Assembly (NCBI GenBank): GCA_964474235.1
Contig: CAYYRP010000010.1
Span: 4,934-68,933, forward strand
Direction: 5' to 3'
DNA from: an uncultured Isosphaeraceae bacterium
GTDB taxonomy: Bacteria > Planctomycetota > Phycisphaerae > Phycisphaerales > SM1A02
DNA: 64,000 nt
Shown in pieces: positions 2,869-62,017 of this stretch (position 1 is its first letter; each line of letters begins with the position of its first letter). Both the position numbers and the translations under genes were made by a program. The notes beneath the pieces were generated by a model. It searched no databases. It was not told the origin of the DNA and saw only the letters and a program-made list of their open reading frames with translations.

Positions 2869-2952
2869 CTCGGGGCAGAGGGTGCAACATCGGGTATTGA
2901 TGTGTGCACATACCGAGACCCGGGGTCAATGATGTCGAGGAACGACCCGCAA

Positions 2953-2994
2953 AAACAACCCGCGGGGTTGTTTATTTCGCGGGGTTGTTTATTT
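2953..2994. repeat. REP hairpin copy (2953..2973) followed by a 17-nt tandem duplication of its right arm (cgcggggttgtttattt x2, 2961..2994)
   Basis: The sequence aaacaacccgcggggttgttt is read directly. It lies between convergent rlmN and the 2989..4449 gene. The TAA stop of the latter (2989..2991) lies inside the duplicated arm. Confidence 0.85.
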
Positions 2995-14257: not shown

Positions 14258-15502
14258 TTAGAAGCATGGACCCCAAGCAGCGATGACAATCAAAATATCA
14301 TCAACGTTGACAATACCGTCACCGTTTACATCGCCATCACATCCAGCATGACACTCGATCATTTCACAGTGCGTGTTTGCATGGAATGAACCCGAGACTG
14401 AAAGACAGTCATCTTCCCAAAGCATCAAACATCCACCATTGATACAACACGCGCCTTCAACAGGTTCACCGCCACATGCAACATCTTCGCAGAGTGCTCC
14501 CGCACCTTGCCAATCGCCGCCTTCATTAAAGCAGTGCATTTCAGTGATCATGATGCATCCATTGTCGATGCAACATGCGCCATCTTCTGGCTGCCCGCAA
14601 ATTGAAGGATCGCAATGTGAGCCAACGCCGAAGAATTCGCCACCAACTTTGTTACACATCATTTCAGTGACTTCTTCGCAGTAACCTTCTACGCAGCAAG
14701 CGCCTGTATCGTTTATTGTGCATTCAATTGCATCGCACCCAGTAGGAAACCACATGCCACCTTCGCTGATGCAGTGTTCTTCCGTAAAATCAAAGCACAT
14801 ATCATCTATGCAGCAAGCACCAATTTGGCCGCCAGAACATGGCATGTCTGCACAACTACCACCAAACCATACACCATTATTCATGTAACATTCTTCCATT
14901 CCAGTCATAACACAATCATTGTCAAAACAACATGCGCCAACTGTAATGTCGTCGCATTCCACCGATTCACAATCCATGCCATGGAAGATGCCGCCTTCTT
15001 GCGTACAATGATCCATAGTTAACATGTGGCAATCAGCCCCGATGCAGCATGCACCTTCTCCAGAACCACCACCACACGAGTCAGCGTTACACATAGTATT
15101 CTCGCCTTGCCAATCGCCGCCCTCTAAGATACAGCCTTCTTCTGGGATGTTGTCATAGCATTGCCCTTCAAAACAGCAAGCACCTGCTGCGGGACCAGAA
15201 CAAGTTGTAGTTTCACACGCAGTGTCTTGACCAAGCCAATCGCCGCCCTGAGCTACACAAAGATCTTCTGCCATGACAGCACATTGCCCATTAAAACAAC
15301 ATGCGCCGAAATTATTTCCGCCACATGAGTCAACACATGTTGTACCTGCACCTTGCCAGTCACCCCCGCCTTGAACACAAACATTTTCGGGCATCACTTG
15401 ACATCCTTGTTCAAAACAACAAGCGCCCATTCCATCTTGAGCAGTTGCGAACCCTGTACAACACAGAATCACTGCTGCCATCATCATCTTTACTGCACGC
15501 AT
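14258..15502 (-). CDS. secreted protein with 9 six-Cys GACC repeats and a C-terminal dockerin/EF-hand-like segment
   Basis: Signal peptide MRAVKMMMAAVILCCTGFATAQ. Nine units begin GACCF/I/V (for example GACCFEQGCQVMPENVCVQGGGDWQGAGTTCVDSC). The tail is CDGDVNGDGIVNVDDILIVIAAWGPCF. A strong SD (AAGGAG) precedes the ATG. Confidence 0.8.
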   Translation of the reverse strand: MRAVKMMMAAVILCCTGFATAQDGMGACCFEQGCQVMPENVCVQGGGDWQGAGTTCVDSCGGNNFGACCFNGQCAVMAEDLCVAQGGDWLGQDTACETTTCSGPAAGACCFEGQCYDNIPEEGCILEGGDWQGENTMCNADSCGGGSGEGACCIGADCHMLTMDHCTQEGGIFHGMDCESVECDDITVGACCFDNDCVMTGMEECYMNNGVWFGGSCADMPCSGGQIGACCIDDMCFDFTEEHCISEGGMWFPTGCDAIECTINDTGACCVEGYCEEVTEMMCNKVGGEFFGVGSHCDPSICGQPEDGACCIDNGCIMITEMHCFNEGGDWQGAGALCEDVACGGEPVEGACCINGGCLMLWEDDCLSVSGSFHANTHCEMIECHAGCDGDVNGDGIVNVDDILIVIAAWGPCF

Positions 15503-15705: not shown

Positions 15706-18700
15706 CTAGTTCGGCAATTTCTCGAAATACAAGATCTTTGGCTTGTCTTGCGGGGTGTTTACCTCGCTACGATCGACGAGCATGACATAGCGTGAGTCAT
15801 CAATAATGTAGTCGAGATCGGTTGCATCCCAAACACCTGTTGCTGAATTTTTCCTGAACGTACGAATACGCATGTGCACAGTAAACACATCACTTGTAGT
15901 TGTGATCAAATTCGAAATACCCGCTTGTAACATATTTAGTTCTTCAGAGTCGCCACTTACACGATCACCAATTAAAGAATCTTCTTCGTAAATATCTACA
16001 GGAGCACCTTTGTCATCAACAACATTTCGTGAATTCACATCAGTGCTGATCGGCGCACCAACACCATCTGCAATCCAATTAGAATTAGAAGTGCCAAATT
16101 CAGAAAATGGTTCTAAGCCAGCATAATCAATACGCCATGCTGCAGGGCCTCGGATCGCTTGATGATTAGAACTGCTCCAAGGTTCAACAACGAACTCAGG
16201 TTTATACTCCGTTTCCATGGTGTCAAACGGTGATGCAGAGAGCATACCAATTTGCGATGGAGATGCAAACCCACGTGTTTCTTCAAGCATTGAGGCATTA
16301 CCGAGCCCTAAGCGCCACGAACGATCTGAATAATCAGGAGCACCAACAATGCCGGTCCCTACAATTTGATCTGCAAAACCGTTGCCATTTTCTCGCCATT
16401 GAAGGATAGATTCAGGAATAAGTGACCGCGGGTTCACATCTCCTGAAACGGCACCCCCACTATCGGATTGTTGCGTAGCGTGGACAATTTTGTTCATGTG
16501 TGGGAGCGCCCGCATCGCTTCAACTGTCGCTGTGTTAATGTTGATCATTCCCGGCGTAGATTTTCCTGTAAACCCATTCGCGTTATAAAAAGAGAACCAC
16601 TGCGTATCTGATGGTTGCAAATCTCCACCTAACCGACCTGGACCATCGCACACGAACGTATCAAGCACTCTGCCTGCAACTGACAAACGCGGCCATGGGT
16701 ACTCAGCAACACGATACGAACTGATCGAATCATCCCAACCTAGTTGCGTGCCACCTAGCATCATCGGCAATGTCATTTGTTGCGTGTCATTTGGATCAAG
16801 TGTATTCTCAAAATCCTCAACGCCTTGATTAAATCGGAGTCTATTCACGCGTGCATCAACATAGAATTCTGTGCGAGTTTCGTCAATATCTGCAGGACCA
16901 TCGAGATCATCTAAGGAAGAGAATCTAGCAATCCCCGTCAATGGTGCCCACCAATCCCAATCAGGATTTCCGTCACCATCTTCATCATCAGCAAGAAGAT
17001 CACCATCTTTATCAATAATTTTTGGGAACATAAATTCGCTAAATGTGACTTGTGTACCAGTGCTATGAATATCGCCTCCGTCGAGAGGGCCTCGGTTCAA
17101 ACTAAAAGTAACATCCGGTAGTGCTTGGTCAAAAAGTATATCGCTTTCAATCATGTGCCCAAAGAGCCAGCAGTTGAGCACTTCGCCAACCTGCTCAAAG
17201 TCGTCATCTTTTTGCAACATCTGCATCGAGAATGGAAATGCCATATCTCGCTCGGCTTCGCCCTCAACACCATCTCCGACTACGAAACCATCTTCATCAA
17301 GATCAGTATCTTCAAACAATGCTTCGTTTTCACCAATGCCGTCCGCAGCATCTGCATCAAAAGGATCAAATTCAAAATCTAGGAACGCAGGGTTAGCAGC
17401 AAAAGTTCCGTCCTCAGCATATTCGTGAGGTGCCCAAGTGCCATCAGTTGGGTCGTGAATCGCTTCCTTTCGAGATTGTCCATACCATCCCTTATCTGGG
17501 AATAGAGCATTCTCTTGATAGTTCATATCGAAGTACGTTGGTTTTCGATTCCTCAAGCCGCCAGCAATAAGCCCATCATTGATAATCTCGTTGTCTCCAC
17601 GGGGAGACCATGTTTCAACTGTAAACCATGGATCAGGATCATCGGCGACCATATCATCGTCGCCACTGTCTGGATTACCATCGCCGTTCATATCATCAGG
17701 ATCTTCGGGTGTTGCTAACTCCCATTTCCATTCAAACACGGAAGTGTGATCTATATTTGGATCTGTTTCGGCTGTATTCATAACAGGTAGCAGATCCAGT
17801 GATCGTATGTGATCACGAGCTGAGAACACAAATCGTGGATTACGTTCCCAGCTGTCATACGTACCATTGTGCCAACCGTACATGTCGGGTACATCTACGC
17901 CCCACGCTCTTGTAGCGCGATCCCACTGCACAAAGAGAACATCATGTGGATTATCAGGATCAGTTACAAGGATTTCAGTATCGATGAATCCATCATCTGC
18001 ATCATCGTCTTTGTCGACTTTATCCCACTCATCTTCCATATCATCAACGACACGTTTAGTAAAACTATTGAACTCATCCGGTCTGTCTAACCGGTCAATT
18101 AAAACCAGTTGGTCAACATCTGTCTTGTAAAGCGCGACTGCATGTTGCGCTTCATCAGAAAGTGCGTCATACCATTCACGCTGCGTACTCCAATCCCCTT
18201 CAGGAACTTCTGCAATGATAGAACCTGCCGCGCCTGCGGGATGATCAGCAACATCGAGGTCTAAGAAATCCAACCAATCAATTCTAAATTGCGGATTCGC
18301 AATTGGGGCAAATTCTTCTTTTGGAATTGTAATAGTTTCTTCATCTGTCATTGCATACAAGATTAACGTCGCAGGATTTTCTGGCGTTGACGGGTATAAA
18401 AATTGTTGGTTTGTTGAAACCAAGAAACTTAAATCTAGTCTCTGTCCAAAAAACTCAACTGTGTAATCTGAAAGGTCAATGACGCGATCAAACGGATTGG
18501 CGAGTTGCACAACGGCGACAGTTTCTTGCGGACATTCATCTGTGTCAGGAGTGACAAGATAAAACGGCTCACACGTTGTAGAAGTACACACAGTACCGTC
18601 GCCTTGATACGTACCATTGATCAAGCCACACGCGTCACCATCAACAACCATCAAACAACTTCCACTAGAGACGCAACACGAACCAAGTCCACAAGGGGAA

Positions 18701-21700
18701 GGGTCGCAATTCGTTCCATCACCCCAATATTGACCTTGCAAATCATTACAAGAAGTTTCATCAACTTCTTTGCATTGTCCTGTTGGCAAGCAACATGCCC
18801 CCACCTCGATAACACATTGGTTATCGCAATCGCTGCACAATGTGTCATCGCCCCAGTACTGAATGCCACCACTTGCAACACAAAATAGTTCAGTAACTTC
18901 CATACAACTAGAACTATCTAAACAACACGCTCCTACAATGCAATTGGTTGCATCACATAACGAATCATCGCCTTGATAGAATCCTGCAAGTAATAAACAG
19001 GATGGCTCTGTCACTTCGACACACTCCCCTATACCCAAACAGCATGCTCCATCAGGACGACCGGGGACACTCGCTCCGCCAACGCAACAGCAATGCCCAT
19101 CAACACACAGAGTTCCGTCTCCACTGTATTCACCGCCAAGTTCACTGCATGTAAATGGTGATACTTCAGTACATTCAAATGTAATAATGCAACATGCACC
19201 TTTTACACATGGACTTGTATCACACATCACCCCGTCACCTTGATACAGACCGCCAAGATCAACGCACGATGTTTGCGGAACATTCACACACGGTTCATCC
19301 GGAATACAACAAGCGCCTTCTATATTTGGAGTACATGGATCTCCTGCGCAAGTTGTAATGCCGTCCCAAACGCCGAGCATCAAGTCACATTGATCCTGTG
19401 TGATGTCTGCACATTCATCTGTGTTGAAGCAACATCGGCCAAGAATAAGAGGCGCTGGTGCGCACGATGCATTGTCACAATCAACGCCGTCCCCTTCATA
19501 CGAACTGAGGAGATCGTCGCACATAGCAAGTGTCATTTGTTCACACGTTCCATCAAGTAAGCAACACGCACCGACTGTACAAGGGGCAGCGCCACACGTG
19601 GTTCCATCGCCTTGATACGTCCCTGCTTTATCAATACATGCTTCTTCAGTGATTGTGACACAATAATTATCTTGAAGACAACAAGCACTTTCAATAACAT
19701 CAAGACATGGATCGGTACTGCAGAGTGTTCCATCACCTTGATAACTCCCAGCGAGATTGTCACACAAGTTTAATGGTGTCACTTCACACTCACCTGTTGG
19801 CAAACAACACGCGCCCGTATCGCAAATTCCTTCACAGCAACTCGTCGAATCGCCTTGGTATGTTCCTGCAATGAGTGCACATACAGATTGAGGAATTGTC
19901 ACACAACCTTCTAACCCCAGACAGCATGCGCCTTCAAAAACTGCAGGGCAATTTGAGTCAAAGCAAGTTGTATCTGAACCAATAAATGCTCCGCCAAGGT
20001 CCAGACAAGTAGAACTTCTTACAGTTTCGCAGAGTTGCAGATCGCTTATGCAGCAAGCTCCAACTTCTGATGAATCAGGAACATCTCCGCAGGTTCCCTC
20101 TACACAAGAACCACCATCGATTGAACCACCCAAGCTTAAACAAGTGCTAGATAAAATATTTTCACAGTTCCCATCGGGCAAACAACACGCTTGCGTGCTA
20201 CAAGAACCATCTTCACAGCTTGAGCTGATACCACCAAAGATGCCTGCTAAGTCATCGCATATATCTTCTGTAACTTCGTAACAAGCGCTTGCTAGGCAAC
20301 AGGCGCCCTCAAATACATCACAACATGGTTCACCCGAACATTCAGAACCATAGCCTTGGAACGAACCAAGCAAATCAGTTTCACAAATGTGCCGTGTAAT
20401 TTCTTCACAGAACAAAGCCTCATCATCACCAGCAGTAAAACAGCATGCGCCACCGCACTCGATTGCACCACACAAGACGCCATCAAAGTACGAGCCACCT
20501 ATATCATGGCATTCTGAGGAAGCAGTTTGCATATTATCTCCATTTGAATCCACAGTTGATGTCATGTTGATACAACTACCACTCCCAAGGCAACATGCGC
20601 CTGTTATGAGGCATGGAGCCTCTGCACAGAATGTTCCAGAATTGTATTCGCCTTCAAACACAGATTCGCAGTATTCTTCAGTCCACACATCCATACAATC
20701 ACCATTTGGTAAGCAGCAAGATCCAGTTGTACAAGCGATGCTTGCACAGTCCGTTGAGGCACCTAAATAATCACCGCCGAGTGTTACGCACTCTGCTTCA
20801 GAAAATACATCGATACAACTTCCACTTCCAAGGCAACAGGCGCCTGTCGAATTACACACCTCCTCTGTGCAATCTAGCCCGTCACCCCTATACACGCCAC
20901 CATACAACATACATGTTTCTTCGATCAGGGTTACACATGTGCTCGCCGGCAAACAACATGCACCAACCGTAGGATCTGTACATAAACCAACCGAACACGA
21001 AACGCCTTCCGTCCACTGTGTATCTTCCACAGGAACACCAGAAAGTTTTGTAAGTTGCTCACAGTGAACGAGAGAAATTTCAAGACATTCGCCAGTTGCA
21101 ATCAAACAACATGATCCAATGACTGCTGGCGATCCAGTACAGTCTGCACATGTAGTTGCCTCACCTTGATAAACACCTGAGAGCATTGTACAGAAACCTT
21201 CTGTCACTACTTCGCAACGGAATTCGCCAATACAACACGCTCCAATAGCACATGGTGCAGAATCGCAAAGTTCACCGTCCCCTTTGTACTCGCCACCCAT
21301 GTCATAACAGACCAGTGCGTCCACTTCAATACAAAAGCCAATTGGCAAATCAAGCGGATCCGACCCAGTTGGGATCTCAGGGATATGCGTAATACAACAT
21401 GCACCAGATCCACAAGGATCAGTTGAACACAAAACAGACAGCCCCGCAAAAGTACCGCCAACTGTTGCGCATTGCGCAGCCGTTAAATCTTCACATATTC
21501 CCGCAGTTGGCTGACCAGTTGGCGAATTATTTGCAATACAGCAGCCACCCAATGCAGGTGTTACCGCTCCGCCACAGGGGTCGGTGTCACAAAATATATC
21601 GTCACCTGAATATGTTCCACCAAGGGCAGTACAGACTACAAATGTGATATCAACACAATCAGTCCCCACACAACACCCTCCGCGAGGAGTACAAGTAACA

Positions 21701-24700
21701 GTATCGCATGTTGTCCCAGCACCTTGGAACGTACCGTATAGTTGTTCCTCGCACGTGCGTATCGAAACGTCTTCACATCCACCCTTTGGCAAACAACAGG
21801 CGCCAAAACATTCGATATCAGAGCAATTTTGACCCGCAAAATATGTACCGTCAAAGTTCAAGCAAGAATCTTCAGAGATATATACACAAGAGCCAGAATT
21901 AAGCGATGTACCAGCTGCAAGATCATCGTCTGTATCAAGACAACAAGCTCCGAATGCTCCGCCACTCCCGCCGCATGGATCTTCGGCACAAGTTACACCC
22001 AACTGATAGGTGCCACTGAGCTCAAAACAAGTGCTAATAGTTACATTTGTACACTGCCCACTGTCTAGGCAACACGCACCTCCACACGGATCATCAATAC
22101 AAAATCTTCCCAATTGAAACACGCCGCCAAAATCTAGACACGTGGTTTCGCCTGCTTCTCGTATATCAATACAACTTCCACTTAGCAAACAACATGCCCC
22201 TTCTGGAGTACACGGAAGAGAAACACAATCAGAATCTATACCTTTGTATTCACCGCCCATATCTGTACAACTCTCTTCTGAAAGTAATTCACAGCCGAGT
22301 AAATCATCTATATCAAGATCAAAACAGCATGCACCCCCACAAGAAATTTCACAACAGAGTTCACCATCATGATATTCACCACCAAGTGTAATGCAATGTT
22401 CTCTGGCGATTTCAATGCAATTTCCTGCCGGTAGACAACATGCCCAACATGAAACAAGTTCGGGGCAAGTCACATCGACACACAAAGAATCTGCATGGAA
22501 TTCTAAACCGCCAAGGAGCGAGAGGCATGTTTCTTCGGAAACTTCTTCGCAGATGGTTTCAGAATCACAACCCGATAAGCAACATGCGCCAAGTGGTTCT
22601 GGGACTTTTGCTTCATGGACGTGCGCAATGAATGTTTCAAGTATAAATGGCTGCGCTTCGAGCCCGAGCATTTGGACTGAACCACCTGCGTCGTTTGAAA
22701 AATTTGTTCCGATTATTGGTAGAGCATTCTGATCATGATCACGCTGCCTGCCAAGGACAGGAGGAGTCACTGCAGAACTCAAAGGCAAACTAGACCTTGC
22801 AAAGGACCCGTTTGGATTAAATGGCAACAGGGAATGATCTCGCCATGCGTCATCTGTATCTTTGTATGCCATCATATTAGAGGCGAGTCCTGCAGCCATT
22901 AACCTCGTTTGCTGATAGGGATCTTGTAAATCACCATTACTTTGGATGGACGTACCATCCATTTCTCCAGCAACTGTACGACCATATCCATTCCAAACTC
23001 CAGTTTCAGAACCGTCGAACATACTCGTAGTTCCTGATTCTTGAGAATCTGTCATTGCAAGCAATAGTGCCAAAGGGGCTCTTTCAGAAAATGTTAATGT
23101 GCCATCGGCGTAAGATTCCCACCATGGATCTCCAAATGCAAAAGTGCCAAAATATTCTCGCAAATCCACTTTGGTTGTTGCTTGTTCTCTCCACTTGTTT
23201 GCAACATCTAAGAATGCCTCTTGCTCTTGACCAGGAGGCGAATCAGATGCAGCTTGCACGGCTTCGTATACAACCTTGAGCGGGAACATTTGCCCCCAAA
23301 CATTTGTTGGTGCTGCGTAGGAATAGTATGCACTTATGTCTAAGGGATCACCATCATCACCACTTGGCAAATCACCCTCTGAGAGATCTGGGTCAAAGCG
23401 ATTGGCAAACCGATCTTCCCATCGAAGCCATGGTGGAAGCAGATCATTTCTTACACCACTAAACAAAGTCATCTTGCGTCGATTATCGAAAACAAGTTGC
23501 GAATTTGTGAGTTGATCACGCAGCTCACTTGCTTCGTGAGCTTTGGTGTAATCACTGCGAATGAATTGCTGACCTACATCGCCATTGGCATTCACTCTGT
23601 TAATACTATTTTCGAATCGGCTTCCAATAAATTGGTAGTTATTCCCCTCGTTAATTCTGAGTTCTATTTCATCAGAGAGGTTGTAGGGTCTAAATCCACG
23701 TCTCGCGTTGAGTGGATTTCTGCCTACGAGTTGCCAATACCAGCGGCGACCATACAGAGAAGTAATGTTATCCCATGGATCATTCAAATCAGCAAATGGA
23801 TTCGCAGTTGTATCGTAAAAAATATCATTCGAAGTCGAGCCACTGACCTGCGCTCCAACTTCATCAAGGATTGATGCATACTCTTGGTCTTGCCAACGGT
23901 CCGTATCCCAAGCCACGACAACTCTTGGGTCATTGGGGTCATCAAGTTCACCGTATGTGATCCAATCTGGTGCGTTAGCAGGTGTATCAAGAAAGCCTAC
24001 TTTCCAATTTGAATCTGTTTCGCTGTAGACATCGTTTTGTGCAACAAGAGCGATGTCGGCAGGTGTATGACCTCTAGTCCCTTCCCCGCCAAGGGCTACC
24101 ATCGGCTGACTCGTACTTGGCATCCCCTCGCCTCTTTGTGGCATTGATGCAGTAATGCCTGAGCTAGAAACATCAACACGATGAAACCGTGACCCAACGT
24201 TAAAATTTACTTTTCCAGAGTTATCAGTAATAGAAATACCAACAATTTGACGAATGTCCGAGCCTGCTTCATACGGTGACAAGTGCCAAATAGAATCTGT
24301 AAAGCCGTCGCCATCAGAGTCTGTCAGCGTTCGTTCTACCATCCACCGTGGAGTCCCATCTTCGAAGGCATCCATCGGCCGTTCACCCTGTTCATGCTGG
24401 ACCCCGTCATTATCTAGATCACTTAAATTCAAGAAGTTGATTGGTAGTAGTTCACTATTAGATTGTGCATTTACCCAGCCATCTAAACTGTACCAATTGT
24501 ACCAACGAGTCCAAAAGTCACCATTGTTATCTAATACATTGCCATCGCTAATTGGCAAATCAAAACCGAGCCCGACTTCGGCAGGCAGTTGCCCCCCAAC
24601 AGTTGGGCGCCACGAGGGCCACTGCTCAACTGGTACATCGAGATCTGTCATCACGCCATCGCCGCCAATATCTGAAATATTGCGTACAGGTCTCCATGCA

Positions 24701-25317
24701 TTCGTGCTTTGTGAGAGGTTCGTCAAATGACGCCAATGCGTAAAGGTGTCAGGTGTACCATCAACGTCATTCCACTCATCTGGGAGATCCTCAGTGGCAA
24801 CATCCACTCGTAAATCTGCTCGCTGTGGCTCCGTGTCACGCAGCCAACGTGCATCACCAAATGATGGACCACCAAGAGGATTATCAGGTCCGACGTTATC
24901 ATCAAAGAAACCACTGCCATTATCATCAACCCTATTGTAATCGTCTGGTGGATTCGTCCAAGGAATGACTGCGTATGGAGCAAAGTTATATGGATTATTT
25001 GGATCGTGCGTCCAACGAGTCTCACCAATATCTGGCAAACGTCTTCGATTATTTGCACTCCCTTGCGGAGCGCCACCTGTAGGAATTTCAGGTTTGACGA
25101 AAAGCGCAAGGGCAATATCATCTGCGATTGCTTGCCCAATAAACCTTGCACTGTTACTCCTCGCAGCCGCGATACGTTGTGCTTTTGCAGTCACACGCGT
25201 ACCTTGCGTGCGTGTCAAGAACGCTGTTGTGACGAGTACGAGAAGAACCAAAACACCAACAACTAAAATCAAAGCGTTTGCACGGCGAAGCGGATTGTGT
25301 ATTTGTTTCATGTTCAT
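15706..25317 (-). CDS. giant (3203 aa) GspK/PilX-like minor pseudopilin carrying an internal array of about 31 six-Cys repeats and multiple DxDxDG Ca-binding-like loops
   Basis: The start is set to the ATG at 25317 (MNMKQIHNPLRRANALILVVGVLVLLVLVTTAFL), which overlaps the upstream stop as TAATG. The N-terminal hydrophobic helix lacks the G-FTLIE/E5 motif, as in GspK. A C-terminal PGMININTATVEAMRALP motif (about 16528..16548) resembles the T2SSK NxNTA helix-hairpin-helix signature. The gene sits in the position after the J-like gene. Confidence 0.7.
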   Translation of the reverse strand: MNMKQIHNPLRRANALILVVGVLVLLVLVTTAFLTRTQGTRVTAKAQRIAAARSNSARFIGQAIADDIALALFVKPEIPTGGAPQGSANNRRRLPDIGETRWTHDPNNPYNFAPYAVIPWTNPPDDYNRVDDNGSGFFDDNVGPDNPLGGPSFGDARWLRDTEPQRADLRVDVATEDLPDEWNDVDGTPDTFTHWRHLTNLSQSTNAWRPVRNISDIGGDGVMTDLDVPVEQWPSWRPTVGGQLPAEVGLGFDLPISDGNVLDNNGDFWTRWYNWYSLDGWVNAQSNSELLPINFLNLSDLDNDGVQHEQGERPMDAFEDGTPRWMVERTLTDSDGDGFTDSIWHLSPYEAGSDIRQIVGISITDNSGKVNFNVGSRFHRVDVSSSGITASMPQRGEGMPSTSQPMVALGGEGTRGHTPADIALVAQNDVYSETDSNWKVGFLDTPANAPDWITYGELDDPNDPRVVVAWDTDRWQDQEYASILDEVGAQVSGSTSNDIFYDTTANPFADLNDPWDNITSLYGRRWYWQLVGRNPLNARRGFRPYNLSDEIELRINEGNNYQFIGSRFENSINRVNANGDVGQQFIRSDYTKAHEASELRDQLTNSQLVFDNRRKMTLFSGVRNDLLPPWLRWEDRFANRFDPDLSEGDLPSGDDGDPLDISAYYSYAAPTNVWGQMFPLKVVYEAVQAASDSPPGQEQEAFLDVANKWREQATTKVDLREYFGTFAFGDPWWESYADGTLTFSERAPLALLLAMTDSQESGTTSMFDGSETGVWNGYGRTVAGEMDGTSIQSNGDLQDPYQQTRLMAAGLASNMMAYKDTDDAWRDHSLLPFNPNGSFARSSLPLSSAVTPPVLGRQRDHDQNALPIIGTNFSNDAGGSVQMLGLEAQPFILETFIAHVHEAKVPEPLGACCLSGCDSETICEEVSEETCLSLLGGLEFHADSLCVDVTCPELVSCWACCLPAGNCIEIAREHCITLGGEYHDGELCCEISCGGACCFDLDIDDLLGCELLSEESCTDMGGEYKGIDSDCVSLPCTPEGACCLLSGSCIDIREAGETTCLDFGGVFQLGRFCIDDPCGGACCLDSGQCTNVTISTCFELSGTYQLGVTCAEDPCGGSGGAFGACCLDTDDDLAAGTSLNSGSCVYISEDSCLNFDGTYFAGQNCSDIECFGACCLPKGGCEDVSIRTCEEQLYGTFQGAGTTCDTVTCTPRGGCCVGTDCVDITFVVCTALGGTYSGDDIFCDTDPCGGAVTPALGGCCIANNSPTGQPTAGICEDLTAAQCATVGGTFAGLSVLCSTDPCGSGACCITHIPEIPTGSDPLDLPIGFCIEVDALVCYDMGGEYKGDGELCDSAPCAIGACCIGEFRCEVVTEGFCTMLSGVYQGEATTCADCTGSPAVIGSCCLIATGECLEISLVHCEQLTKLSGVPVEDTQWTEGVSCSVGLCTDPTVGACCLPASTCVTLIEETCMLYGGVYRGDGLDCTEEVCNSTGACCLGSGSCIDVFSEAECVTLGGDYLGASTDCASIACTTGSCCLPNGDCMDVWTEEYCESVFEGEYNSGTFCAEAPCLITGACCLGSGSCINMTSTVDSNGDNMQTASSECHDIGGSYFDGVLCGAIECGGACCFTAGDDEALFCEEITRHICETDLLGSFQGYGSECSGEPCCDVFEGACCLASACYEVTEDICDDLAGIFGGISSSCEDGSCSTQACCLPDGNCENILSSTCLSLGGSIDGGSCVEGTCGDVPDSSEVGACCISDLQLCETVRSSTCLDLGGAFIGSDTTCFDSNCPAVFEGACCLGLEGCVTIPQSVCALIAGTYQGDSTSCCEGICDTGACCLPTGECEVTPLNLCDNLAGSYQGDGTLCSTDPCLDVIESACCLQDNYCVTITEEACIDKAGTYQGDGTTCGAAPCTVGACCLLDGTCEQMTLAMCDDLLSSYEGDGVDCDNASCAPAPLILGRCCFNTDECADITQDQCDLMLGVWDGITTCAGDPCTPNIEGACCIPDEPCVNVPQTSCVDLGGLYQGDGVMCDTSPCVKGACCIITFECTEVSPFTCSELGGEYSGDGTLCVDGHCCCVGGASVPGRPDGACCLGIGECVEVTEPSCLLLAGFYQGDDSLCDATNCIVGACCLDSSSCMEVTELFCVASGGIQYWGDDTLCSDCDNQCVIEVGACCLPTGQCKEVDETSCNDLQGQYWGDGTNCDPSPCGLGSCCVSSGSCLMVVDGDACGLINGTYQGDGTVCTSTTCEPFYLVTPDTDECPQETVAVVQLANPFDRVIDLSDYTVEFFGQRLDLSFLVSTNQQFLYPSTPENPATLILYAMTDEETITIPKEEFAPIANPQFRIDWLDFLDLDVADHPAGAAGSIIAEVPEGDWSTQREWYDALSDEAQHAVALYKTDVDQLVLIDRLDRPDEFNSFTKRVVDDMEDEWDKVDKDDDADDGFIDTEILVTDPDNPHDVLFVQWDRATRAWGVDVPDMYGWHNGTYDSWERNPRFVFSARDHIRSLDLLPVMNTAETDPNIDHTSVFEWKWELATPEDPDDMNGDGNPDSGDDDMVADDPDPWFTVETWSPRGDNEIINDGLIAGGLRNRKPTYFDMNYQENALFPDKGWYGQSRKEAIHDPTDGTWAPHEYAEDGTFAANPAFLDFEFDPFDADAADGIGENEALFEDTDLDEDGFVVGDGVEGEAERDMAFPFSMQMLQKDDDFEQVGEVLNCWLFGHMIESDILFDQALPDVTFSLNRGPLDGGDIHSTGTQVTFSEFMFPKIIDKDGDLLADDEDGDGNPDWDWWAPLTGIARFSSLDDLDGPADIDETRTEFYVDARVNRLRFNQGVEDFENTLDPNDTQQMTLPMMLGGTQLGWDDSISSYRVAEYPWPRLSVAGRVLDTFVCDGPGRLGGDLQPSDTQWFSFYNANGFTGKSTPGMININTATVEAMRALPHMNKIVHATQQSDSGGAVSGDVNPRSLIPESILQWRENGNGFADQIVGTGIVGAPDYSDRSWRLGLGNASMLEETRGFASPSQIGMLSASPFDTMETEYKPEFVVEPWSSSNHQAIRGPAAWRIDYAGLEPFSEFGTSNSNWIADGVGAPISTDVNSRNVVDDKGAPVDIYEEDSLIGDRVSGDSEELNMLQAGISNLITTTSDVFTVHMRIRTFRKNSATGVWDATDLDYIIDDSRYVMLVDRSEVNTPQDKPKILYFEKLPN
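18571..22590 (-). repeat. coding tandem array of about 31 diverged units of about 43 aa (CC-x5-C-x7-C-x12-C-x5-C) inside the giant gene
   Basis: Counted by eye in the translation. Units start G-A-C-C-[LFIV], for example GACCLPTGECEVTPLNLCDNLAGSYQGDGTLCSTDPC. The first GACC codons are at 22590 and the last Cys codon is at 18571..18573. Confidence 0.85.
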
Positions 25318-27110
25318 TATTCGCGCTCCGGTATATTGACGACAAATTGATATGTCCACCCAGCACCAAGTCGATTATCTGGATCTTGTAATCGAAGCGT
25401 TACCTTAATAGCCGTTGGTCTTGGGGTGTATCGCCACACGACATTACCTGCCTGATCACCGTTGTCCCACCCACCATCTTCTACTGCTCCATCATCTACA
25501 TTCGGATTCGCAGAATATTCATTCACAAAATCTAAACCATTTTCGAGAAATGGATCTGCGTTGTTATATCCAAAGATCGCCCAATATTCATTCACGCCAT
25601 CATCGTCTATCCCCTCAACAGTGGGAACGGGTGCGAGGGAGGAGCCCTCACCATCCACGAAAGTTCGCTCTATAAACCAAGGGTCAATCGACCACGCTGC
25701 AATGTCTGCAAATTCCGCATCATCGTCTGCAATATCTGTATCGTGGGTTGCAAACGGGTCATCTTGGGTGTGTATCCCATCCCAAGGATTACCTGTCGCT
25801 TGATTATAAAAATCTTGGAGTGTAGAGAACTCAATTGAGTAATCATATTCATCATCTCGTGTGGAACCACCCCACCACGGTTGCTGCCACTGATTTGCAT
25901 AATTAAAGCCAGGAAACCACTGCCCGCTTGTATCAATTGCTTCACCAACACCCTCGTCATACGTCCATTCAACTTGAAACGTGACGCACCCTTGCGCAAT
26001 TGCTGCAACTCGCATCGCCTGATCTGCCCTGTCCAACGTTGGTGGAATTGGTTCTACTCTCGGCCAATACATAAGACTTGCAATCAGTTCTTGTTGATCT
26101 ACATTGTCGGGAACTTGATTCGTGTTTCCTAAAAATGCTCCCTGCCAGACACGATCTTCAGAAGAACTAGACCCTTCTTCCCACTGAAGAACGGATTCGC
26201 GAATATCCGCTAAGTGGGTTGCAGCAGTGTCCACTCTGCTGTGCTGGATTTGAGGAATAGTTTCACCTGCTTCGACACGTGGGTCCCATGGAAATATACT
26301 GCGTGCAGCAAGCGCGCCAGGAGAATAGGTGCCAGACGAAAGGTAAATCGTCTTACTTGTATCTCGTGGAGAATTATCATCATCATCTGCGAGGACAACA
26401 AGTTGCCTGCATAAAATCCAATCGGTTGGGTTTGGCTGCGTGCCCCCTGCAAAACCGCCTTCGCCATCAACGATATCAAATCGTTCAGCTTGACCATCAG
26501 AATAGATTCTTGATTGAAAAGAGACCATTCCCTCGTACCATGGGGTAACCACTTGCTGCGTGCTAGAAGGAAAGAGAACGGGATCCGCCGATTGGTTCGA
26601 CGTAGGCGTGCCATATTCATCCTCAGCAATACCGTCTAATCGAGGAAACTGCAGCCCATGTCCGTAATACACCATCGCAGAACATCCTTGTCCTGCAAAA
26701 TTAGTGCCGCCATTTGTCCCTGGTGAAGCACCATTAAAAACCATTGGGCTCGCGACAGCTTCGGTGAGGAAAATCAATTGGTCACATCGCACAATTGCAG
26801 AAGCATCTTGCGAAGGATCTAAGAGGTCGTATTCACTACGGACGTTATTCGCAACAGCAACACTTCGAATTGCAAAGAACCCTTCTGGAGAAATCTTTGC
26901 AATATCTTCTCGCAATTGTTGTTCGATAGCAATAGCCTGCTGAAGCGTACTCGTTGTAGCGGCACCAATAGCAGCAACCTTGCTCGTCACGCTAAATATT
27001 CTTGAAACTGCAATCATAATTGCTAGTAGTACGACGATTGAAACCATAAGTTCCATTAACGTGAACCCAACTCGTAAACTATTTCTGAACCTTTCAAGAA
27101 CAGTAGACAT
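25317..27110 (-). CDS. prepilin-type N-terminal domain protein, GspJ/PilW-like position (597 aa)
   Basis: N-terminus MSTVLERFRNSLRVG-FTLMELMVSIVVLLAIM (class III signal with E5). It lies between the I-like and K-like genes. Confidence 0.7.
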   Translation of the reverse strand: MSTVLERFRNSLRVGFTLMELMVSIVVLLAIMIAVSRIFSVTSKVAAIGAATTSTLQQAIAIEQQLREDIAKISPEGFFAIRSVAVANNVRSEYDLLDPSQDASAIVRCDQLIFLTEAVASPMVFNGASPGTNGGTNFAGQGCSAMVYYGHGLQFPRLDGIAEDEYGTPTSNQSADPVLFPSSTQQVVTPWYEGMVSFQSRIYSDGQAERFDIVDGEGGFAGGTQPNPTDWILCRQLVVLADDDDNSPRDTSKTIYLSSGTYSPGALAARSIFPWDPRVEAGETIPQIQHSRVDTAATHLADIRESVLQWEEGSSSSEDRVWQGAFLGNTNQVPDNVDQQELIASLMYWPRVEPIPPTLDRADQAMRVAAIAQGCVTFQVEWTYDEGVGEAIDTSGQWFPGFNYANQWQQPWWGGSTRDDEYDYSIEFSTLQDFYNQATGNPWDGIHTQDDPFATHDTDIADDDAEFADIAAWSIDPWFIERTFVDGEGSSLAPVPTVEGIDDDGVNEYWAIFGYNNADPFLENGLDFVNEYSANPNVDDGAVEDGGWDNGDQAGNVVWRYTPRPTAIKVTLRLQDPDNRLGAGWTYQFVVNIPERE

Positions 27111-28336
27111 TAGAGTTCCTCCACCATTGCAAATATAGGGACAATTGTACGATTCAAGGAATCACTTGTTGGCAAATACCAAATATCTGTGACAACACCT
27201 TCTTCTACCATGCCCCCAAAAGAACCTGTTGGGATAACGGGCGGATTTTGCAGTGCGCCTTCCCACCAATTCACATTCGTTGGAGCGGCCACACTTGCAT
27301 CATTTACTGAAGGAGAGACCATCACACTTGCTGGAGCTGAGATGAGTTTCACTTCTTCATCCGAGAGTCTTCTTCGACCTCGCTGTACTCGGTGGATGTG
27401 TCCATTTTGATCCACAATCCACTGGCCCACTGCTTGCCAATGGTTGTTCGGTTCGTTTGGATTGTCTGCATCTGTTCCTGCAAGAACATTCGTTGTTGCA
27501 TCCCATGATCCAGTAGAACTATCAATAAGAGAACGATAAAACGGTAACTGCGGTGTTTGCCAATTCGTAGTGTCTACTATGTATGGTCCTGTTTCATTTG
27601 AATCAACAATTCTATACACGAATATTGCGACAAGAATTCTTTGTTCATACCTGCGGAACATACAGTCCCAATAATATTTACCGCCATCACGAGAAGTAGG
27701 ATCATATCCTTCAAGCGTATTTACTCGTGGATCACCATCCCACATTGGGTATTGACGTTCAGAAGCAGTTATACGGATTACAGGGGGGCGATCGGCAAGC
27801 GGGTTCCCTGAGTCATCGATTTCATTTGGAAATTTTTCTTTGTTATAAGGGATTCCTGGGACGTCAGTTGATGAAGCCCATCGCTCTGCTATATGGTCGG
27901 AATCAGGGTAACCAAAAATGTCTATTGCGCCACGCAATGTCACATCAACTGGGTTTGAAGCATCGCCAAATCCTGAAGGAATAAAAGCAGGACGACGCCA
28001 CATCCAATCGCCACAAATTGTTCTCCAATGATTTGAATTACCACTTGGAGTACCAACATTAAAATCGCATAAATCTGGTGACCAATTAATAGGATCAAAC
28101 ACTTCGCAATATCCGAAATCATCTGGCTTAAGTTTGGAACGAAGCAACGTCATTGCATTGTTTGCAACAATAGGACCAAGAAGATCATCGGCGGCACGTT
28201 GTTGTTGCCGAATCCCCGCAGGCAAGAGTGCCGCGATGCTAATAATTCCAATGCCAAGAATAAAAATGGCGAGCAACAGTTCGATCAAAGAAAAACCTTG
28301 TGGTTTACGGTTAATTATTTTTCTAGGACGAATCAT
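27110..28336 (-). CDS. prepilin-type N-terminal domain protein, GspI/PilV-like (408 aa)
   Basis: N-terminus MIRPRKIINRKPQG-FSLIELLLAIFILGIGIISIAALLP, which resembles PilV/GspI leaders. Its stop shares base 27110 with the ATG of the J-like gene. Confidence 0.7.
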   Translation of the reverse strand: MIRPRKIINRKPQGFSLIELLLAIFILGIGIISIAALLPAGIRQQQRAADDLLGPIVANNAMTLLRSKLKPDDFGYCEVFDPINWSPDLCDFNVGTPSGNSNHWRTICGDWMWRRPAFIPSGFGDASNPVDVTLRGAIDIFGYPDSDHIAERWASSTDVPGIPYNKEKFPNEIDDSGNPLADRPPVIRITASERQYPMWDGDPRVNTLEGYDPTSRDGGKYYWDCMFRRYEQRILVAIFVYRIVDSNETGPYIVDTTNWQTPQLPFYRSLIDSSTGSWDATTNVLAGTDADNPNEPNNHWQAVGQWIVDQNGHIHRVQRGRRRLSDEEVKLISAPASVMVSPSVNDASVAAPTNVNWWEGALQNPPVIPTGSFGGMVEEGVVTDIWYLPTSDSLNRTIVPIFAMVEEL

Positions 28337-29268
28337 TTTTCAGGAACCCCGCTATACCTATTAAATTGAATTCGATCTGTTGTGTTATTTATAAAATCGG
28401 TAAAATGCCAATCACGGTCGTACTTGTCAACAGTACCGTTGCTAGGATTACGTTCCCAATCCGATCGTGCAATATCTGTAAAGTTTGGGTAGTTAGTTCG
28501 AGTAGCGCCCCATTTTTCACGGAAAGCATCATAGTCAAAAATTGAAAGCAAATTAGCTAGCCCAATGTAGGTCTCACTTTCAGGAGCCTCCACATCAAAA
28601 TAGGCTCCACTAGGAAGGTCGTTAACAGGTTGTGTCCAATCAACAAAAATAGGATCAAATTCATCATCGTTTCGTAATGCAAGATCGATAGTTTGAATTC
28701 CATCTCTATCGAAATCAACCCAGATACGATCGCTACCACTTTCAGAGTTACGTACTACTACGCGACCTTCAGGGTTATAAAGAATGCCAACCATTTCGCC
28801 CATCAACGATATATTTTTGACAACTGCATTTGATGGCAAGTACGTACATACCCACCAAATATGATCTGCATTCAATGCAATTCCAGGTGCAGCTACGCCA
28901 ATTCCAATTGGGAGATTTTTTGGTTTCTGCCCATCGATAGGAACAAAGCGGTCGTATGTCCAATCACCAGCGTTCTGCGAATCACCAAACCACTCTGCTA
29001 CCACGCATTCGTAATACTGCTCACTGCCATCACCTGATAACTTAGGTCGAAAAACTGTAATCACATATCGATTGTTTTTTATTGCAAACGCGCGAGCGTT
29101 ATCGAGAGCTGCGATGATCGTGTTCTTCGCAGTTGAAAGTCGCATATTTTTCGCAACTTTGACATACGCCATGGCAGAAAAACCTGCGATTATCGCAATA
29201 ATAATAATCACAACGACTAATTCAACAAGCGTAAAACCACGCTTCAGATTGGACGGCATTCTACTCAA
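28333..29268 (-). CDS. prepilin-type N-terminal domain protein, GspH/FimU-like (311 aa)
   Basis: N-terminus MSRMPSNLKRG-FTLVELVVVIIIIAIIAGF, followed by ...LDNARAFAIKNNRYVITVF as in the GspH family. ATGA overlaps occur at both ends. Confidence 0.7.
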   Translation of the reverse strand: MSRMPSNLKRGFTLVELVVVIIIIAIIAGFSAMAYVKVAKNMRLSTAKNTIIAALDNARAFAIKNNRYVITVFRPKLSGDGSEQYYECVVAEWFGDSQNAGDWTYDRFVPIDGQKPKNLPIGIGVAAPGIALNADHIWWVCTYLPSNAVVKNISLMGEMVGILYNPEGRVVVRNSESGSDRIWVDFDRDGIQTIDLALRNDDEFDPIFVDWTQPVNDLPSGAYFDVEAPESETYIGLANLLSIFDYDAFREKWGATRTNYPNFTDIARSDWERNPSNGTVDKYDRDWHFTDFINNTTDRIQFNRYSGVPEK

Positions 29269-29981
29269 CGCGCATCCTCCACAACAAACGGCTCGTACGA
29301 CGTTACGTTATCCAACGTTGCATTCCATGTGTCATCATCTCTTGAATATGGATTTGCTTGGTACCGATATCCCCACAGACCATCGGGACCCGCAGAGACT
29401 AAATATGAGCGTTTATTCAAACATGAACCAAGCCCATCTTCTGCTTGATCGCGTATGGTTAAATCACCCGATTCGTCTTCCGCAAGGGTGATCAACCCAG
29501 AATCTTCAAAGTCGCCGCAAGGAAAAACTATTCCTATAGGAAAACCCCAAGCATCAACAACGCGAGCACCGTGTTCATCTTCCTCTATCAAGTCAGGGTG
29601 AATCTTTGCAAGTATATTTTTACTTGCTTCAAGTTCTATGAGTAATATCCAAAGCTGTTCTGCACGGTAATCCATTGCTTCGGTCATATCAGATTGATCA
29701 ACACTTGCATTAAAAGATGGAATACCAAGTATGCCATCATTTTCAATGTCGTACGTGCCACCAACTGAACCTACAGATGCGAACGTCATTGATCGACCCA
29801 TTTCTGTTTCCCATTCAGAAATAGCTGTGTCAAGAAGAGTAATAGCATCTTTGGTTTTTCTTATCTCGCTGCCACGAAGCACTTTGTTAGAAATACCAAG
29901 CGTCAACCCTGCAAGTAACACAATGATTGCAATCACAATCATCATTTCGATCAAAGTAAAACCGCGCGTTTCTTTTGTCAT
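29265..29981 (-). CDS. prepilin-type N-terminal domain protein, second GspG-like pseudopilin (238 aa)
   Basis: N-terminus MTKETRG-FTLIEMMIVIAIIVLLAGL, then ...KTKDAITLLDTAISEWE. Confidence 0.75.
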   Translation of the reverse strand: MTKETRGFTLIEMMIVIAIIVLLAGLTLGISNKVLRGSEIRKTKDAITLLDTAISEWETEMGRSMTFASVGSVGGTYDIENDGILGIPSFNASVDQSDMTEAMDYRAEQLWILLIELEASKNILAKIHPDLIEEDEHGARVVDAWGFPIGIVFPCGDFEDSGLITLAEDESGDLTIRDQAEDGLGSCLNKRSYLVSAGPDGLWGYRYQANPYSRDDDTWNATLDNVTSYEPFVVEDAR

Positions 29982-31135
29982 GGACCAATCTCCACTATGT
30001 TGTCAGCGTTAAATTCATCAGTTGCGTCATCACTATCATTTCCAGGCAAACCAAAAACGTCCGCCCGTATTCGAGTATTTAATTGCTTATCTGCGCCTGC
30101 GGAGAAAAAAGCAATGTTTCCTGTTTGCAATTCAAGTGTTGTAGAAGGGTCTCCATTCCCATACGCTTCGTTGTAATCACCAAAACTTGCATTTACTGGG
30201 CTACTTGGCAAATTGAAAGGACGTAAGACAATGTAGTCGCTGAGTGTTGGGCGCGCAAAATCAGAGCCGGGAGGATAGATTCGTGAAATGCCTGATTCAA
30301 TTTCTCGGTCAACTTCGTCCGTTTGAGGGAATTGATTTTTAAATGGATAGACTTGCCGATAGTAGCGGATAGGTGATCCCCATGAGTCTACAAGCACCAT
30401 CGGATTTTCTTGGTTATCCGTCGAATAATCAGGATCCCCCGGATAGTGCACAATCGGCTGACCTGTTAGTGGATCAAGTGTAGCATCGGGTGCTCCATCA
30501 CCATCCCTGTCAGGGCCAAGGACAATTCTTCCAAGCATTTGTTCATTTTTTACTTCAATATAAGGTCCGTAAGTTTTACCACCAGCAGCAATTGCGTACC
30601 CACGATCTTCGAAATCCCATGTTCCTCGATCGCAACCCCAATCTGGAAATGCACAACGATCTGTCGCGCCCCAAACACCGTCCATCGCGGGATGACGAAT
30701 ACCGAGTGCTGGTGATTCGTCTCTGTTTTGAATGGGACCACCGAGAACTCGATATGAACCGTAGCCATCCTCATCACGCCCGCCGTAGCCAAGCAAGTAT
30801 TCAGCGGGTGAAGTAATAGAATACCAATGCTGCGCAGTTCCTCGGTAACTCGATTGCTCGTTGCCCTGCATGCCAATTGGAGGATAATTAGGAAAGTTCG
30901 CGAGCCCACGGCTGTCATTCAAAATTGGCGGGTAATAGCCAATATCATTTTTAAAGGCAGTCATTCCTTGCGCCATTGCTGTCATGCGGGATCGTGTTTC
31001 TGCTCGCTTAGCTGCCGTTCTTGCAGCACTAGTTGCGACAACGAGCACAGCAACCAAGATCACGATGATCACAATGACCATTAACATCTCGATGAGTGTA
31101 AAAGCAGAAAGCAAATTGGATCGACGTTGATGCAC
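29978..31135 (-). CDS. GspG-like major pseudopilin candidate with a long C-terminal extension (385 aa)
   Basis: N-terminus MHQRRSNLLSA-FTLIEMLMVIVIIVILVAVLV...AKRAETRSRMTAMAQGMTAFKNDIGYYPP follows the GspG pattern (..A..L..Y..D.G.YP). Position -1 is Ala rather than Gly. It is the first gene after the platform gene. Confidence 0.7.
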   Translation of the reverse strand: MHQRRSNLLSAFTLIEMLMVIVIIVILVAVLVVATSAARTAAKRAETRSRMTAMAQGMTAFKNDIGYYPPILNDSRGLANFPNYPPIGMQGNEQSSYRGTAQHWYSITSPAEYLLGYGGRDEDGYGSYRVLGGPIQNRDESPALGIRHPAMDGVWGATDRCAFPDWGCDRGTWDFEDRGYAIAAGGKTYGPYIEVKNEQMLGRIVLGPDRDGDGAPDATLDPLTGQPIVHYPGDPDYSTDNQENPMVLVDSWGSPIRYYRQVYPFKNQFPQTDEVDREIESGISRIYPPGSDFARPTLSDYIVLRPFNLPSSPVNASFGDYNEAYGNGDPSTTLELQTGNIAFFSAGADKQLNTRIRADVFGLPGNDSDDATDEFNADNIVEIGP

Positions 31136-61550: not shown

Positions 61551-62017
61551 TTGACATCCTCGCTAGATGCAACAGTTCTTCTGCATCTCGCTACTTTTAT
61601 TGGACCAATGCCATGCACTTGTAACAAATCTTCTGGACTCTTCAACCTGTGCGTTTCACGATAGAGAATAATTCTTTCGGCAAGCGAAGAACCGATTCCC
61701 TCAAGCAACATGAGTTCATCTTTTGGTGCGTGCTGAATGTCGACTCTCCATGGAGCATGCAATTCATTTGGCGCTGTTGGGATGCGCTCGAAAACGATCA
61801 TCCACAATGACGCAAATAAAATCAACGTAAAAAGGAATCGAGAACCAATCAGACCTACGCTTCTTCCTTCGGTGGAAGTTGTCTCTCGCCAAGTGGTTGA
61901 CGAAGTTTTCTGCGCATACCGACCAAACGGCTTAAGAGTTGCCTCGGTTTCCCTTGTTTGGAAACCATTGCTGCCGCCTTCAGTTGTGGGTTGTCGTGAT
62001 CGAAAAGATCTGTCCAT
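61547..62017 (-). CDS. ComEA-like helix-hairpin-helix DNA-binding protein
   Basis: TM segment LFTLILFASLWMIVF, then LMLLEGIGSSLAERIILYRETHRLKSPEDLLQVHGIGPIKV (HhH x2). The N-terminal 50 or so codons overlap the upstream gene, so the start is uncertain. ATGA overlap with mfd. Confidence 0.6.
   Translation of the reverse strand: MDRSFRSRQPTTEGGSNGFQTRETEATLKPFGRYAQKTSSTTWRETTSTEGRSVGLIGSRFLFTLILFASLWMIVFERIPTAPNELHAPWRVDIQHAPKDELMLLEGIGSSLAERIILYRETHRLKSPEDLLQVHGIGPIKVARCRRTVASSEDVK

Follow-up and report, generated by a model that had tools for sequence, protein, structure and literature searches.

A six-cysteine module in 31 tandem copies within a giant protein of a planctomycetal pilus operon

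What is the cysteine-rich repeat that fills the middle of a giant gene at the end of a filament operon, and what could it do there? The question arises from 64,000 nucleotides of DNA of an uncultured Isosphaeraceae bacterium, a marine member of the Phycisphaerales (contig CAYYRP010000010.1, positions 4,934 to 68,933 of the forward strand). This whole stretch is called the window here, and its first letter is position 1 of all coordinates. A first-pass annotation of the letters had described 31 six-cysteine units at 18571-22590 whose cysteine spacing matched none of the familiar repeat families. The six-cysteine module is ancient, uncurated and very widespread, and 31 copies of it are inserted here into a giant protein of a pilus operon. 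The array falls within kinds of element already known, namely extracellular repeats rich in disulfides and minor pilins that have been elaborated. The argument is built on two features:

18556-22590, minus strand: 31 tandem six-cysteine units, residues 924-2268 of the host protein (from translation parsing, alignment, hidden Markov model domains and cysteine counts)
15706-25317, minus strand: the host gene, candidate for a giant K-type (GspK-like) minor pseudopilin (from its gene start, about 100 scaffold homologue clusters and sub-threshold matches to T2SSK, GspK and TIGR02600)

The host open reading frame (ORF) spans window positions 15706-25359 on the minus strand and gives 3217 residues from a GTG at 25359. 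Translation probably begins at the ATG at 25317, which yields 3203 residues and overlaps the upstream stop codon as TAATG; the JGI gene caller predicts the same product. Parsing of the translation gave 31 units with a mean period of 43.4 residues, 29 of which begin with [GS][AGSR]CC, one with WACC and one with QACC. A hidden Markov model (HMM) built from the units likewise found 31 domains in P0272, a cluster representative that is 100% identical to the non-repeat parts of the window protein, and it matched the cluster holding the window protein with E=2.9e-271. The earlier count is therefore confirmed by both routes, with the array extending over 18556-22590, and the nine further copies announced in the same annotation were recovered in a 414-residue ORF at 14258-15502. 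Almost all cysteines of the host protein (194 of 198) lie inside the array; one is found in the N-terminal part of 923 residues and three in the C-terminal part of 949 residues. Within the array cysteine makes up 14% and aspartate plus glutamate about 15% of the residues.

Tandem Repeats Finder (TRF) detected no DNA-level tandem repeat in the array. Nine gapless units share on average 50% DNA identity (maximum 59%) and 45% protein identity. Because of this high divergence between units and the negative TRF result, the array is old and diverged, in agreement with the first-pass view that it is not a product of recent slippage. Recent slippage and an assembly artefact are both excluded by the DNA divergence and by recurrence across samples: the 414-residue neighbour gene together with the adjoining end of the large gene is present on nine contigs from several samples.

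Throughout the family the commonest cysteine spacing is CC-x5-C-x7-C-x13-C-x4-C, seen in 880 of 3178 units from 273 proteins. The first-pass pattern was right in its CC-x5-C-x7-C part and one residue off in the remainder, where it gave x12 and x5; its own example counts as x13 and x4. The canonical unit of the array reads G-A-C-C-[LFIV]-x4-C-x7-C-x3-G-G-x-[YFW]-x-G-x-G-[TSV]-x-C-x4-C, and the family consensus, taken from 1021 canonical units, is GACC[FL]PDG[ST]CxxxTExxCxxxGGx[YF]QGDGTxCDPNPCPQ. Each unit has six cysteines, the CC pair is invariant and no histidine is conserved. A variant with a longer first loop, CC-x6-C, occurs 65 times among the bacterial units.

Is this a family that has already been described under another name? 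Scanning of both repeat proteins with hmmscan against Pfam-A and NCBIfam (E<=1) matched no cysteine-rich repeat model, EGF-like models and TIGR02232 included. An exhaustive hmmsearch with a 40-unit profile against 1.84 billion cluster representatives (clusters at 50% identity) returned 8046 proteins at E<=1e-3, of which 3906 remain at E<=1e-10 and 995 at E<=1e-30, with 1 to 36 tandem units per protein. A word-indexed homologue search with a 42-residue unit alignment collected too few candidates and gave six short proteins only. Where the sources provide a name for a homologue it is almost always 'hypothetical protein', and the organisms named are Phycisphaerae, Phycisphaerales, Planctomycetota and Candidatus Eisenbacteria. 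A genome scan, whose query was a consensus-like three-unit sequence and which favours consensus-like units, confirmed 228 stretches. The 80 loci that were kept are all metagenome-assembled genomes, mainly of Eisenbacteria (with many paralogues per genome), Phycisphaerae, Planctomycetaceae and Isosphaeraceae; a minor share belongs to a few Lentimicrobiaceae, Acidobacteriota and Thermodesulfobacteriota. The survey of the distribution that the first-pass annotation had suggested thus describes a large uncurated family, chiefly from uncultured Planctomycetota/Phycisphaerae and Candidatus Eisenbacteria, and the impression of an unfamiliar repeat was well founded. No prior description was found in the literature with searches on Phycisphaerae, pseudopilin and cysteine-rich or on Eisenbacteria and cysteine. 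The lack of a model is likely due to the fact that the named carriers are nearly all metagenome-assembled genomes.

In its usual architecture the family combines a head (reprolysin-type metalloprotease, beta-helix, L-type lectin or PPC) with two to six units and a C-terminal tail. Tails are dockerin-like in several Phycisphaerae-type proteins and of the SWGxIKxx[FY]R or FlgD_ig-like type in others, some of them labelled Eisenbacteria. Export-type, signal-peptide-like N-termini are found in the 414-residue protein, in single-unit proteins and in multi-domain relatives. Secreted single-unit proteins of 60-90 residues occur as well.

Several members of the family deserve mention in their own right. 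Four secreted proteins of 59-80 residues (P0002, P0003, P0004 and P0006) consist of a signal peptide and exactly one unit, which can therefore stand alone. In P0249, P0254, P0257 and P0265 a zinc metalloprotease of the reprolysin/ADAM type is fused to four units, with two dockerin-like segments in those inspected, and one cluster of such fusions holds 212 member sequences. In many repeat proteins the last unit is followed immediately by a conserved C-terminal tag, ...[ST]SWG[RQKE][IV]K..[FY]R (P0019, P0028, P0035, P0071, P0082, P0087, P0091, P0112, P0124, P0127 and others, as well as P0262, which is labelled Candidatus Eisenbacteria); this tag has the appearance of a sorting or anchoring signal that has so far gone unrecognised.

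Does the unit fold on its own, and does it have structural relatives? AlphaFold2 (AF2), applied to units 22-24 with an 83-row alignment of three-unit segments, gave a model with a mean predicted local distance difference test (pLDDT) score of 87.3. The same elements are seen in all three units, namely a beta-hairpin at the CC pair and the third cysteine, a short helix before the fourth cysteine and a strand at the GG-x-aromatic motif. Modelling of two to three consecutive units, as proposed in the first-pass annotation, provided a confident unit model.

Profile searches of 177,635 PDB sequences, with E-values that apply at PDB scale only, led to one protein family. With the window's own 40 units the sole matches were iRhom1 and iRhom2 (E=1.9e-4 to 0.03). 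With 96 diverse units of the family again only iRhom1/2 were found (E=2.6e-5, 3.3e-5, 8.1e-4 and 9.2e-4), the next match having E=1.1. The scores of the iRhoms against the unit profile range from 22 to 28 bits. Foldseek comparison of the three-unit AF2 model with 350,542 PDB chains returned four chains, all of iRhom1/2, with E=0.047, 0.14, 0.14 and 1.7, probabilities of 0.96 to 0.14 and a TMq of about 0.3; against viral predicted structures it returned nothing. The iRhom entries compared were 8SNL, 9O58, 9XY4 and 9Q7Y. The matched region belongs to the iRhom homology domain (IRHD), which was described as unique among known domains and as comprising two structured regions (PMC8233286). The domain is extracellular, and its fold was called unprecedented and stapled by eight disulfides (PMC11248996), which are formed by 16 conserved cysteines in a single domain (PMC10148629, PMC11248996). 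No report of bacterial relatives of the IRHD was found in the literature, and the specific similarity of the bacterial unit to it is, as far as the literature was searched, previously unreported.

The matched IRHD segment (about residues 570-606 of iRhom2 in 8SNL) has the spacing CC-x6-C-x7-C-x13-C-x4-C. Unit and iRhom also share non-cysteine positions: a hydrophobic residue after CC, a glycine two positions before the third cysteine, G23, an aromatic residue at 25 and T30. To what extent the cysteines alone account for the match was addressed by permutation. Two iRhom segments were scored against an HMM of 1005 canonical units, with 2000 permutations each in which the cysteines were held fixed. 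The real segments reached 25.5 and 28.0 bits, compared with 5.7+/-4.7 and 6.4+/-4.0 bits for the permuted ones (z=4.2 and 5.4), and none of the 2000 permutations attained the real score. Permutation of the other residues costs about 20 bits, which shows that more than the cysteine framework is matched. A second, weaker partial match lies earlier in the IRHD, ACCVRNDRSGCVQTSEEEC, and is consistent with the two structured regions reported (PMC8233286).

These data can be explained in two ways. We lean slightly towards homology of the unit and the IRHD. The bacterial unit could also be an independent invention that converged on a common cysteine framework, an explanation that we regard as a serious if somewhat less probable one. 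It would account for the modest scores (22-28 bits; Foldseek E=0.05-0.14 at a TMq of about 0.3), for the extra residue in the first loop of the iRhom segment, for the absence from the iRhom match of the conserved G-A before CC and of the glycine at unit position 27, and for the wholly different domain contexts. It explains less well that profile and fold searches of the PDB both return iRhoms and essentially nothing else, that several key non-cysteine positions coincide and that the score collapses in the permutation test; the x6 loop, moreover, is also present in the 65 bacterial units mentioned above. Sequence similarity of the unit to the structured core of the IRHD is borne out by profile search and permutation test, with significance at PDB scale only. 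The two other defining features of the IRHD are absent from the bacterial proteins. Its location is not reproduced: the host lacks a rhomboid domain, its one hydrophobic segment being N-terminal, and other carriers are secreted. The single domain with 16 cysteines is replaced by tandem units with six. The similarity is thus no confident placement in a curated family, which the first-pass annotation had named as the finding that would refute it; the first-pass statement that the repeat lacks a known match holds for curated families, but has to be amended for this modest, specific similarity to part of the IRHD.

A bolder proposal, that the structured core of the IRHD descended from the bacterial six-cysteine module or shares an ancestor with it, seems doubtful to us at present. 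If it were true, the partnership of the module with ADAM-like proteases could predate animals, given the bacterial fusions to reprolysin/ADAM-type metalloproteases. These fusions are notable because ADAM17 is the partner of the IRHD, in which the unit has its sole structural relative.

How did the array come to lie in the giant protein? A search with the repeat-deleted host sequence gave 103 clusters of 1300-3200 residues, none with a precomputed Pfam domain. These scaffold homologues are named by their sources mostly as Phycisphaerales, Phycisphaerae or Planctomycetota. The array is confined to the closest clade of this scaffold family (at least 45% identity), where it always occupies the same site and comprises 19, 25, 30 or 31 units. 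One homologue, P0277 (1857 residues, 46% identical, four cysteines), aligns across the junction and has about 25 residues in place of the 1345 of the array. The loci of P0277, which has no array, and of P0276, which has 19 units, show full synteny with the window over the stretch from the PilT-like gene through uppS and purA, except that both lack the 414-residue gene. The array is accordingly an accessory insertion at one fixed site, flanked by QPFILETFIAHV and ETVAVVQLANPFDRVIDLSDY. By eye these flanks resemble a lamin-tail-like domain (LTD), and insertion into the first loop of such a domain was considered; it is not supported, with no Pfam LTD match on the spliced window segment or on that of P0277 and a match in one of 25 relatives only (E=0.17).

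Distant scaffold homologues of 2500-2900 residues (P0292, P0295, P0303, P0306, P0310 and P0320-P0330) contain other large segments of about 1000-1400 residues, which align to neither host flank and have almost no six-cysteine units. Different lineages seem to have loaded the scaffold with different cargo.

What kind of protein is the host? Its genetic context and its two ends are described by the following features:

29978-31135, 29265-29981, 28333-29268, 27110-28336 and 25317-27110, minus strand: five prepilin-type genes (N-terminal [GA]F[TS]L[IVM]E motif, read directly)
31143-32438, minus strand: GspF/PilC-type platform protein (Pfam scan)
32457-34262, minus strand: GspE/PilB-type ATPase with MshEN domain (Pfam scan)
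34433-35536, minus strand: PilT-like ATPase (Pfam scan)
35557-37296, minus strand: second MshEN-type ATPase (Pfam scan)
25210-25290, minus strand: N-terminal basic and hydrophobic segment of the host, RRANALILVVGVLVLLVLVTTAFL, without glutamate at +5 (family-wide RRGNxxxLVxxxLVLLV)
15709-15921, minus strand: conserved C-terminal strand region of the host, ...SDVFTVHMRIRTFRKN...WDATD...DDSRYVMLVDRS... (TIGR02600 match, conservation and AF2)

The stops and starts of the five prepilin-type genes overlap or abut, and three of the five products match N_methyl (PF07963). The operon runs in the order GspE, GspF, five prepilin-type genes and finally the giant gene, an order that is kept in two other loci (L085 and L086). 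The position is that of a GspK gene, after the pseudopilin genes and together with GspE and GspF; the link to pseudopilin N-termini hinted at in the first-pass annotation is borne out, the host being the last of six pilin-like genes. The giant protein starts with RRANALILVVGVLVLLVLVTTAF, which is hydrophobic and has no Glu5, and may be compared, by eye and unscored, with QRGVALLIVLMLLALMA / QRGVALLIVLMLLALMAALAA of E. coli GspK. The earlier description of an exported protein is supported in this respect, except that the N-terminus is of the GspK-like, uncleaved hydrophobic type and not a classical signal peptide. The scaffold family shares the N-terminus RRGNxxxLVxxxLVLLV and a strongly conserved C-terminus, SDVFTVYFRVRSFRQNP.TG.WDATDP..IVDDSRYVMLVDRS.

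Curated models give sub-threshold signals in the same direction. TIGR02600 (Verru_Chthon cassette protein A) matches the window protein with 13.5 bits (cut-off 332; E=0.012) in the last 55 residues only; these correspond to positions 1202-1258 of the 1296 of the model, and no other part of the host matches. Among 25 relatives without the insert that were scanned with curated pseudopilin models, 19 match TIGR02600 below threshold in the same C-terminal stretch (best E=1.7e-5), nine match Pfam T2SSK (PF03934; best 0.02) and three match the GspK model NF037980 (best 0.003). PF03934 and NF037980 do not match the window protein itself. In an AF2 model of the C-terminal 380 residues only the last 60-80 are reasonably confident, the best blocks of the last 60 having a pLDDT of 76-89. 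On the basis of N-terminus, operon position and weak profile signals we propose that the host would resemble a K-type tip pseudopilin; its membership of the GspK family is not established.

Outside the array, residues 60-920 and 2269-3217 of the host are very acidic (10-13% aspartate), almost free of cysteine and contain motifs of the DxDGDG type, for example DSDGDGFTDS; relatives of the host show weak FG-GAP, TSP3 and EF-hand matches. This composition suggests that the non-repeat parts may bind calcium.

Taken together, we consider it probable that a pilus-tip subunit displays the array as a stalk or adhesion module stapled by disulfides. Each unit, about 40 residues long, would be a self-contained mini-domain outside the cell, made up of the beta-hairpin, short helix and strand of the model and held by what are probably three disulfides. 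In tandem, such units could build a rod or interaction surface resistant to proteases and shear. Elsewhere in the family, between a catalytic or binding head and an anchoring tail, they would act as a rigid spacer or interaction module. A filament-operon protein would have acquired 31 of them at a permissive internal site. If the host caps the pilus or pseudopilus as GspK does, the array would be shown at the tip as a long stalk or adhesin, and the copy number (0, 19, 25, 30 or 31 among orthologues) might tune reach or valency. Of this picture, the data directly show the repeat and its spread, the confident model of a unit, the single insertion site and the operon with its synteny, while disulfide pairing, a place at the tip, an adhesive or spacing role and common ancestry with the IRHD are inferred.

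Several results weigh against this picture. Cysteine columns are almost never lost jointly among the 3251 aligned units, and co-loss therefore gave no information on disulfide pairs. All matches to GspK-type profiles are far below the curated cut-offs, and hhalign with the 25-row alignment of relatives gave no match to E. coli K-12 GspK (probability 0.2%). The AF2 model of the C-terminal 380 residues, computed with the same alignment, is poor overall (pLDDT 57), and its comparison with the PDB by Foldseek gave no meaningful match; a PDB sequence-profile search with the 25-member scaffold alignment also returned nothing. GspK crystal structures show a pilin fold with an inserted alpha-domain. 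The similarity to the iRhoms is likewise modest, with a low TM-score at Foldseek E=0.05-0.14 and HMM E-values that are valid for a PDB-sized database only. Pfam scans of the window ORFs of at least 150 residues found neither a secretin (GspD/PilQ) nor a prepilin peptidase. The filament operon does encode three ATPases, a platform and six pilin-like proteins, and the genes for the parts that it lacks must lie outside the window. Finally, since the residues flanking the array are contiguous in P0277, both ends of the array may need to come back to one point; the array would then form a loop, and a straight stalk cannot be taken for granted.

Part of these findings would also be expected if the host were no filament subunit at all, but a membrane-anchored surface protein that stands beside the pilin genes by chance and carries the array as a cell-surface stalk. 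The profile scores below cut-off, the failed fold tests with AF2, Foldseek and hhalign, the 3200 residues of the host, ten times those of E. coli K-12 GspK, and the fact that most repeat carriers are ordinary secreted proteins all agree with it. A chance neighbour, however, would hardly overlap the upstream pilin stop as TAATG, keep its place in the gene order of two other loci, share a GspK-like N-terminus throughout its family and show recurring sub-threshold matches to T2SSK, GspK and TIGR02600 in its relatives, and we judge this explanation to be unlikely. A role of the array as a surface metal store or redox wire, with cysteines that coordinate Zn, Fe, Cu or a cluster instead of forming disulfides, is very improbable: the 14% cysteine, the invariant CC pair and the acidic residues would suit it, but the cysteine number per unit is even without a conserved histidine, all contexts are exported or extracellular, AF2 gives a compact fold without any ligand, and in the IRHD, the sole structural relative, eight disulfides are reported to staple the fold (PMC11248996).

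With a pilus-tip stalk or adhesion module as the favoured reading, the locus is of interest beyond this one genome. A domain family of at least 8000 clusters at 50% identity, with up to 36 copies per protein, is without a model in the Pfam and NCBIfam releases searched, and with a curated one, thousands of surface proteins now called 'hypothetical' in Planctomycetota and Eisenbacteria would receive an annotation. A single fixed site that holds 0 to 31 modules (up to 1345 residues) offers a natural series for the elaboration of a filament-tip subunit. If all 194 cysteines of the array pair, about 97 disulfides would be formed in one exported protein, implying a strong capacity for oxidative folding, in line with the dependence on disulfide formation that the first-pass annotation had put forward. 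The family is, in addition, the first candidate outgroup for the IRHD, the regulator of ADAM17 that was described without relatives, and if the homology is true, the small and tractable bacterial units could serve as models of the IRHD fold.

A second carrier of the repeat lies next to the host gene:

14258-15502, minus strand: 414-residue gene with signal-peptide-like N-terminus, nine units (residues 26-391) and a C-terminal dockerin-like half-repeat

Its units have the spacing CC-x4-C-x7-C-x11/13-C-x4-C. Because they use CC-x4-C and not CC-x5-C, the gene does not derive from a recent duplication within the array. The half-repeat (residues 390-410) matches Dockerin_1 (PF00404) with 15.9 bits, below the cut-off of 22.9 (E=0.015), and many homologues have precomputed PF00404 matches. 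Type I dockerin is normally a duplicated calcium-binding segment of 22 residues. The gene is absent from the syntenic loci L085 and L086, in both of which uppS directly follows the giant gene; its place between the two is peculiar to the lineage of the window. The nine-unit protein may be a partner of the giant protein or a separate surface component.

Three further features of the window were noted:

44313-45062, minus strand: IS200-like Y1 transposase (PF01797, E=2.8e-12), between thiG and a phosphoglucomutase gene
2989-4449, minus strand: protein with F5/8 type C (discoidin) and class-I glutamine amidotransferase domains
61855-63453, minus strand: GH10-like glycoside hydrolase

The discoidin protein and the GH10-like enzyme would fit a particle- or polysaccharide-associated lifestyle.

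How, then, does the locus compare with systems already known? Similar to the curated cysteine-rich repeats (EGF-like, TIGR02232, disintegrin/ADAM cysteine-rich), the unit is a small, cysteine-dense extracellular tandem module that acts as a spacer beside enzymes, reprolysin-type metalloproteases among them; it is set apart from them by its CC doublet and its 5/7/13/4 spacing, and none of these models matches at E<=1. The IRHD of metazoan iRhom1 and iRhom2 shows the same order of six cysteines, and three of the four spacers (x7, x13 and x4) are identical, whereas its first loop is one residue longer. It is also a single domain of 16 cysteines, placed between TM1 and TM2 of an animal rhomboid-like core, in contrast to bacterial units with six cysteines in about 40 residues and 1-36 tandem copies. 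With GspK of type II secretion the host protein shares the last place after the prepilin-type genes downstream of GspE and GspF, as well as an N-terminal basic-G-hydrophobic segment without Glu5, while its C-terminal 55 residues align to the C-terminus of TIGR02600. It differs from E. coli K-12 GspK, which has 327 residues, by a tenfold greater length, and from the GspK and TIGR02600 models by the cysteine-rich insertion of 1345 residues, for which no curated model exists. Compared with a type II secretion system the window lacks GspC, D, L and M; its filament operon ends in a giant protein with 31 copies of a widespread six-cysteine module.

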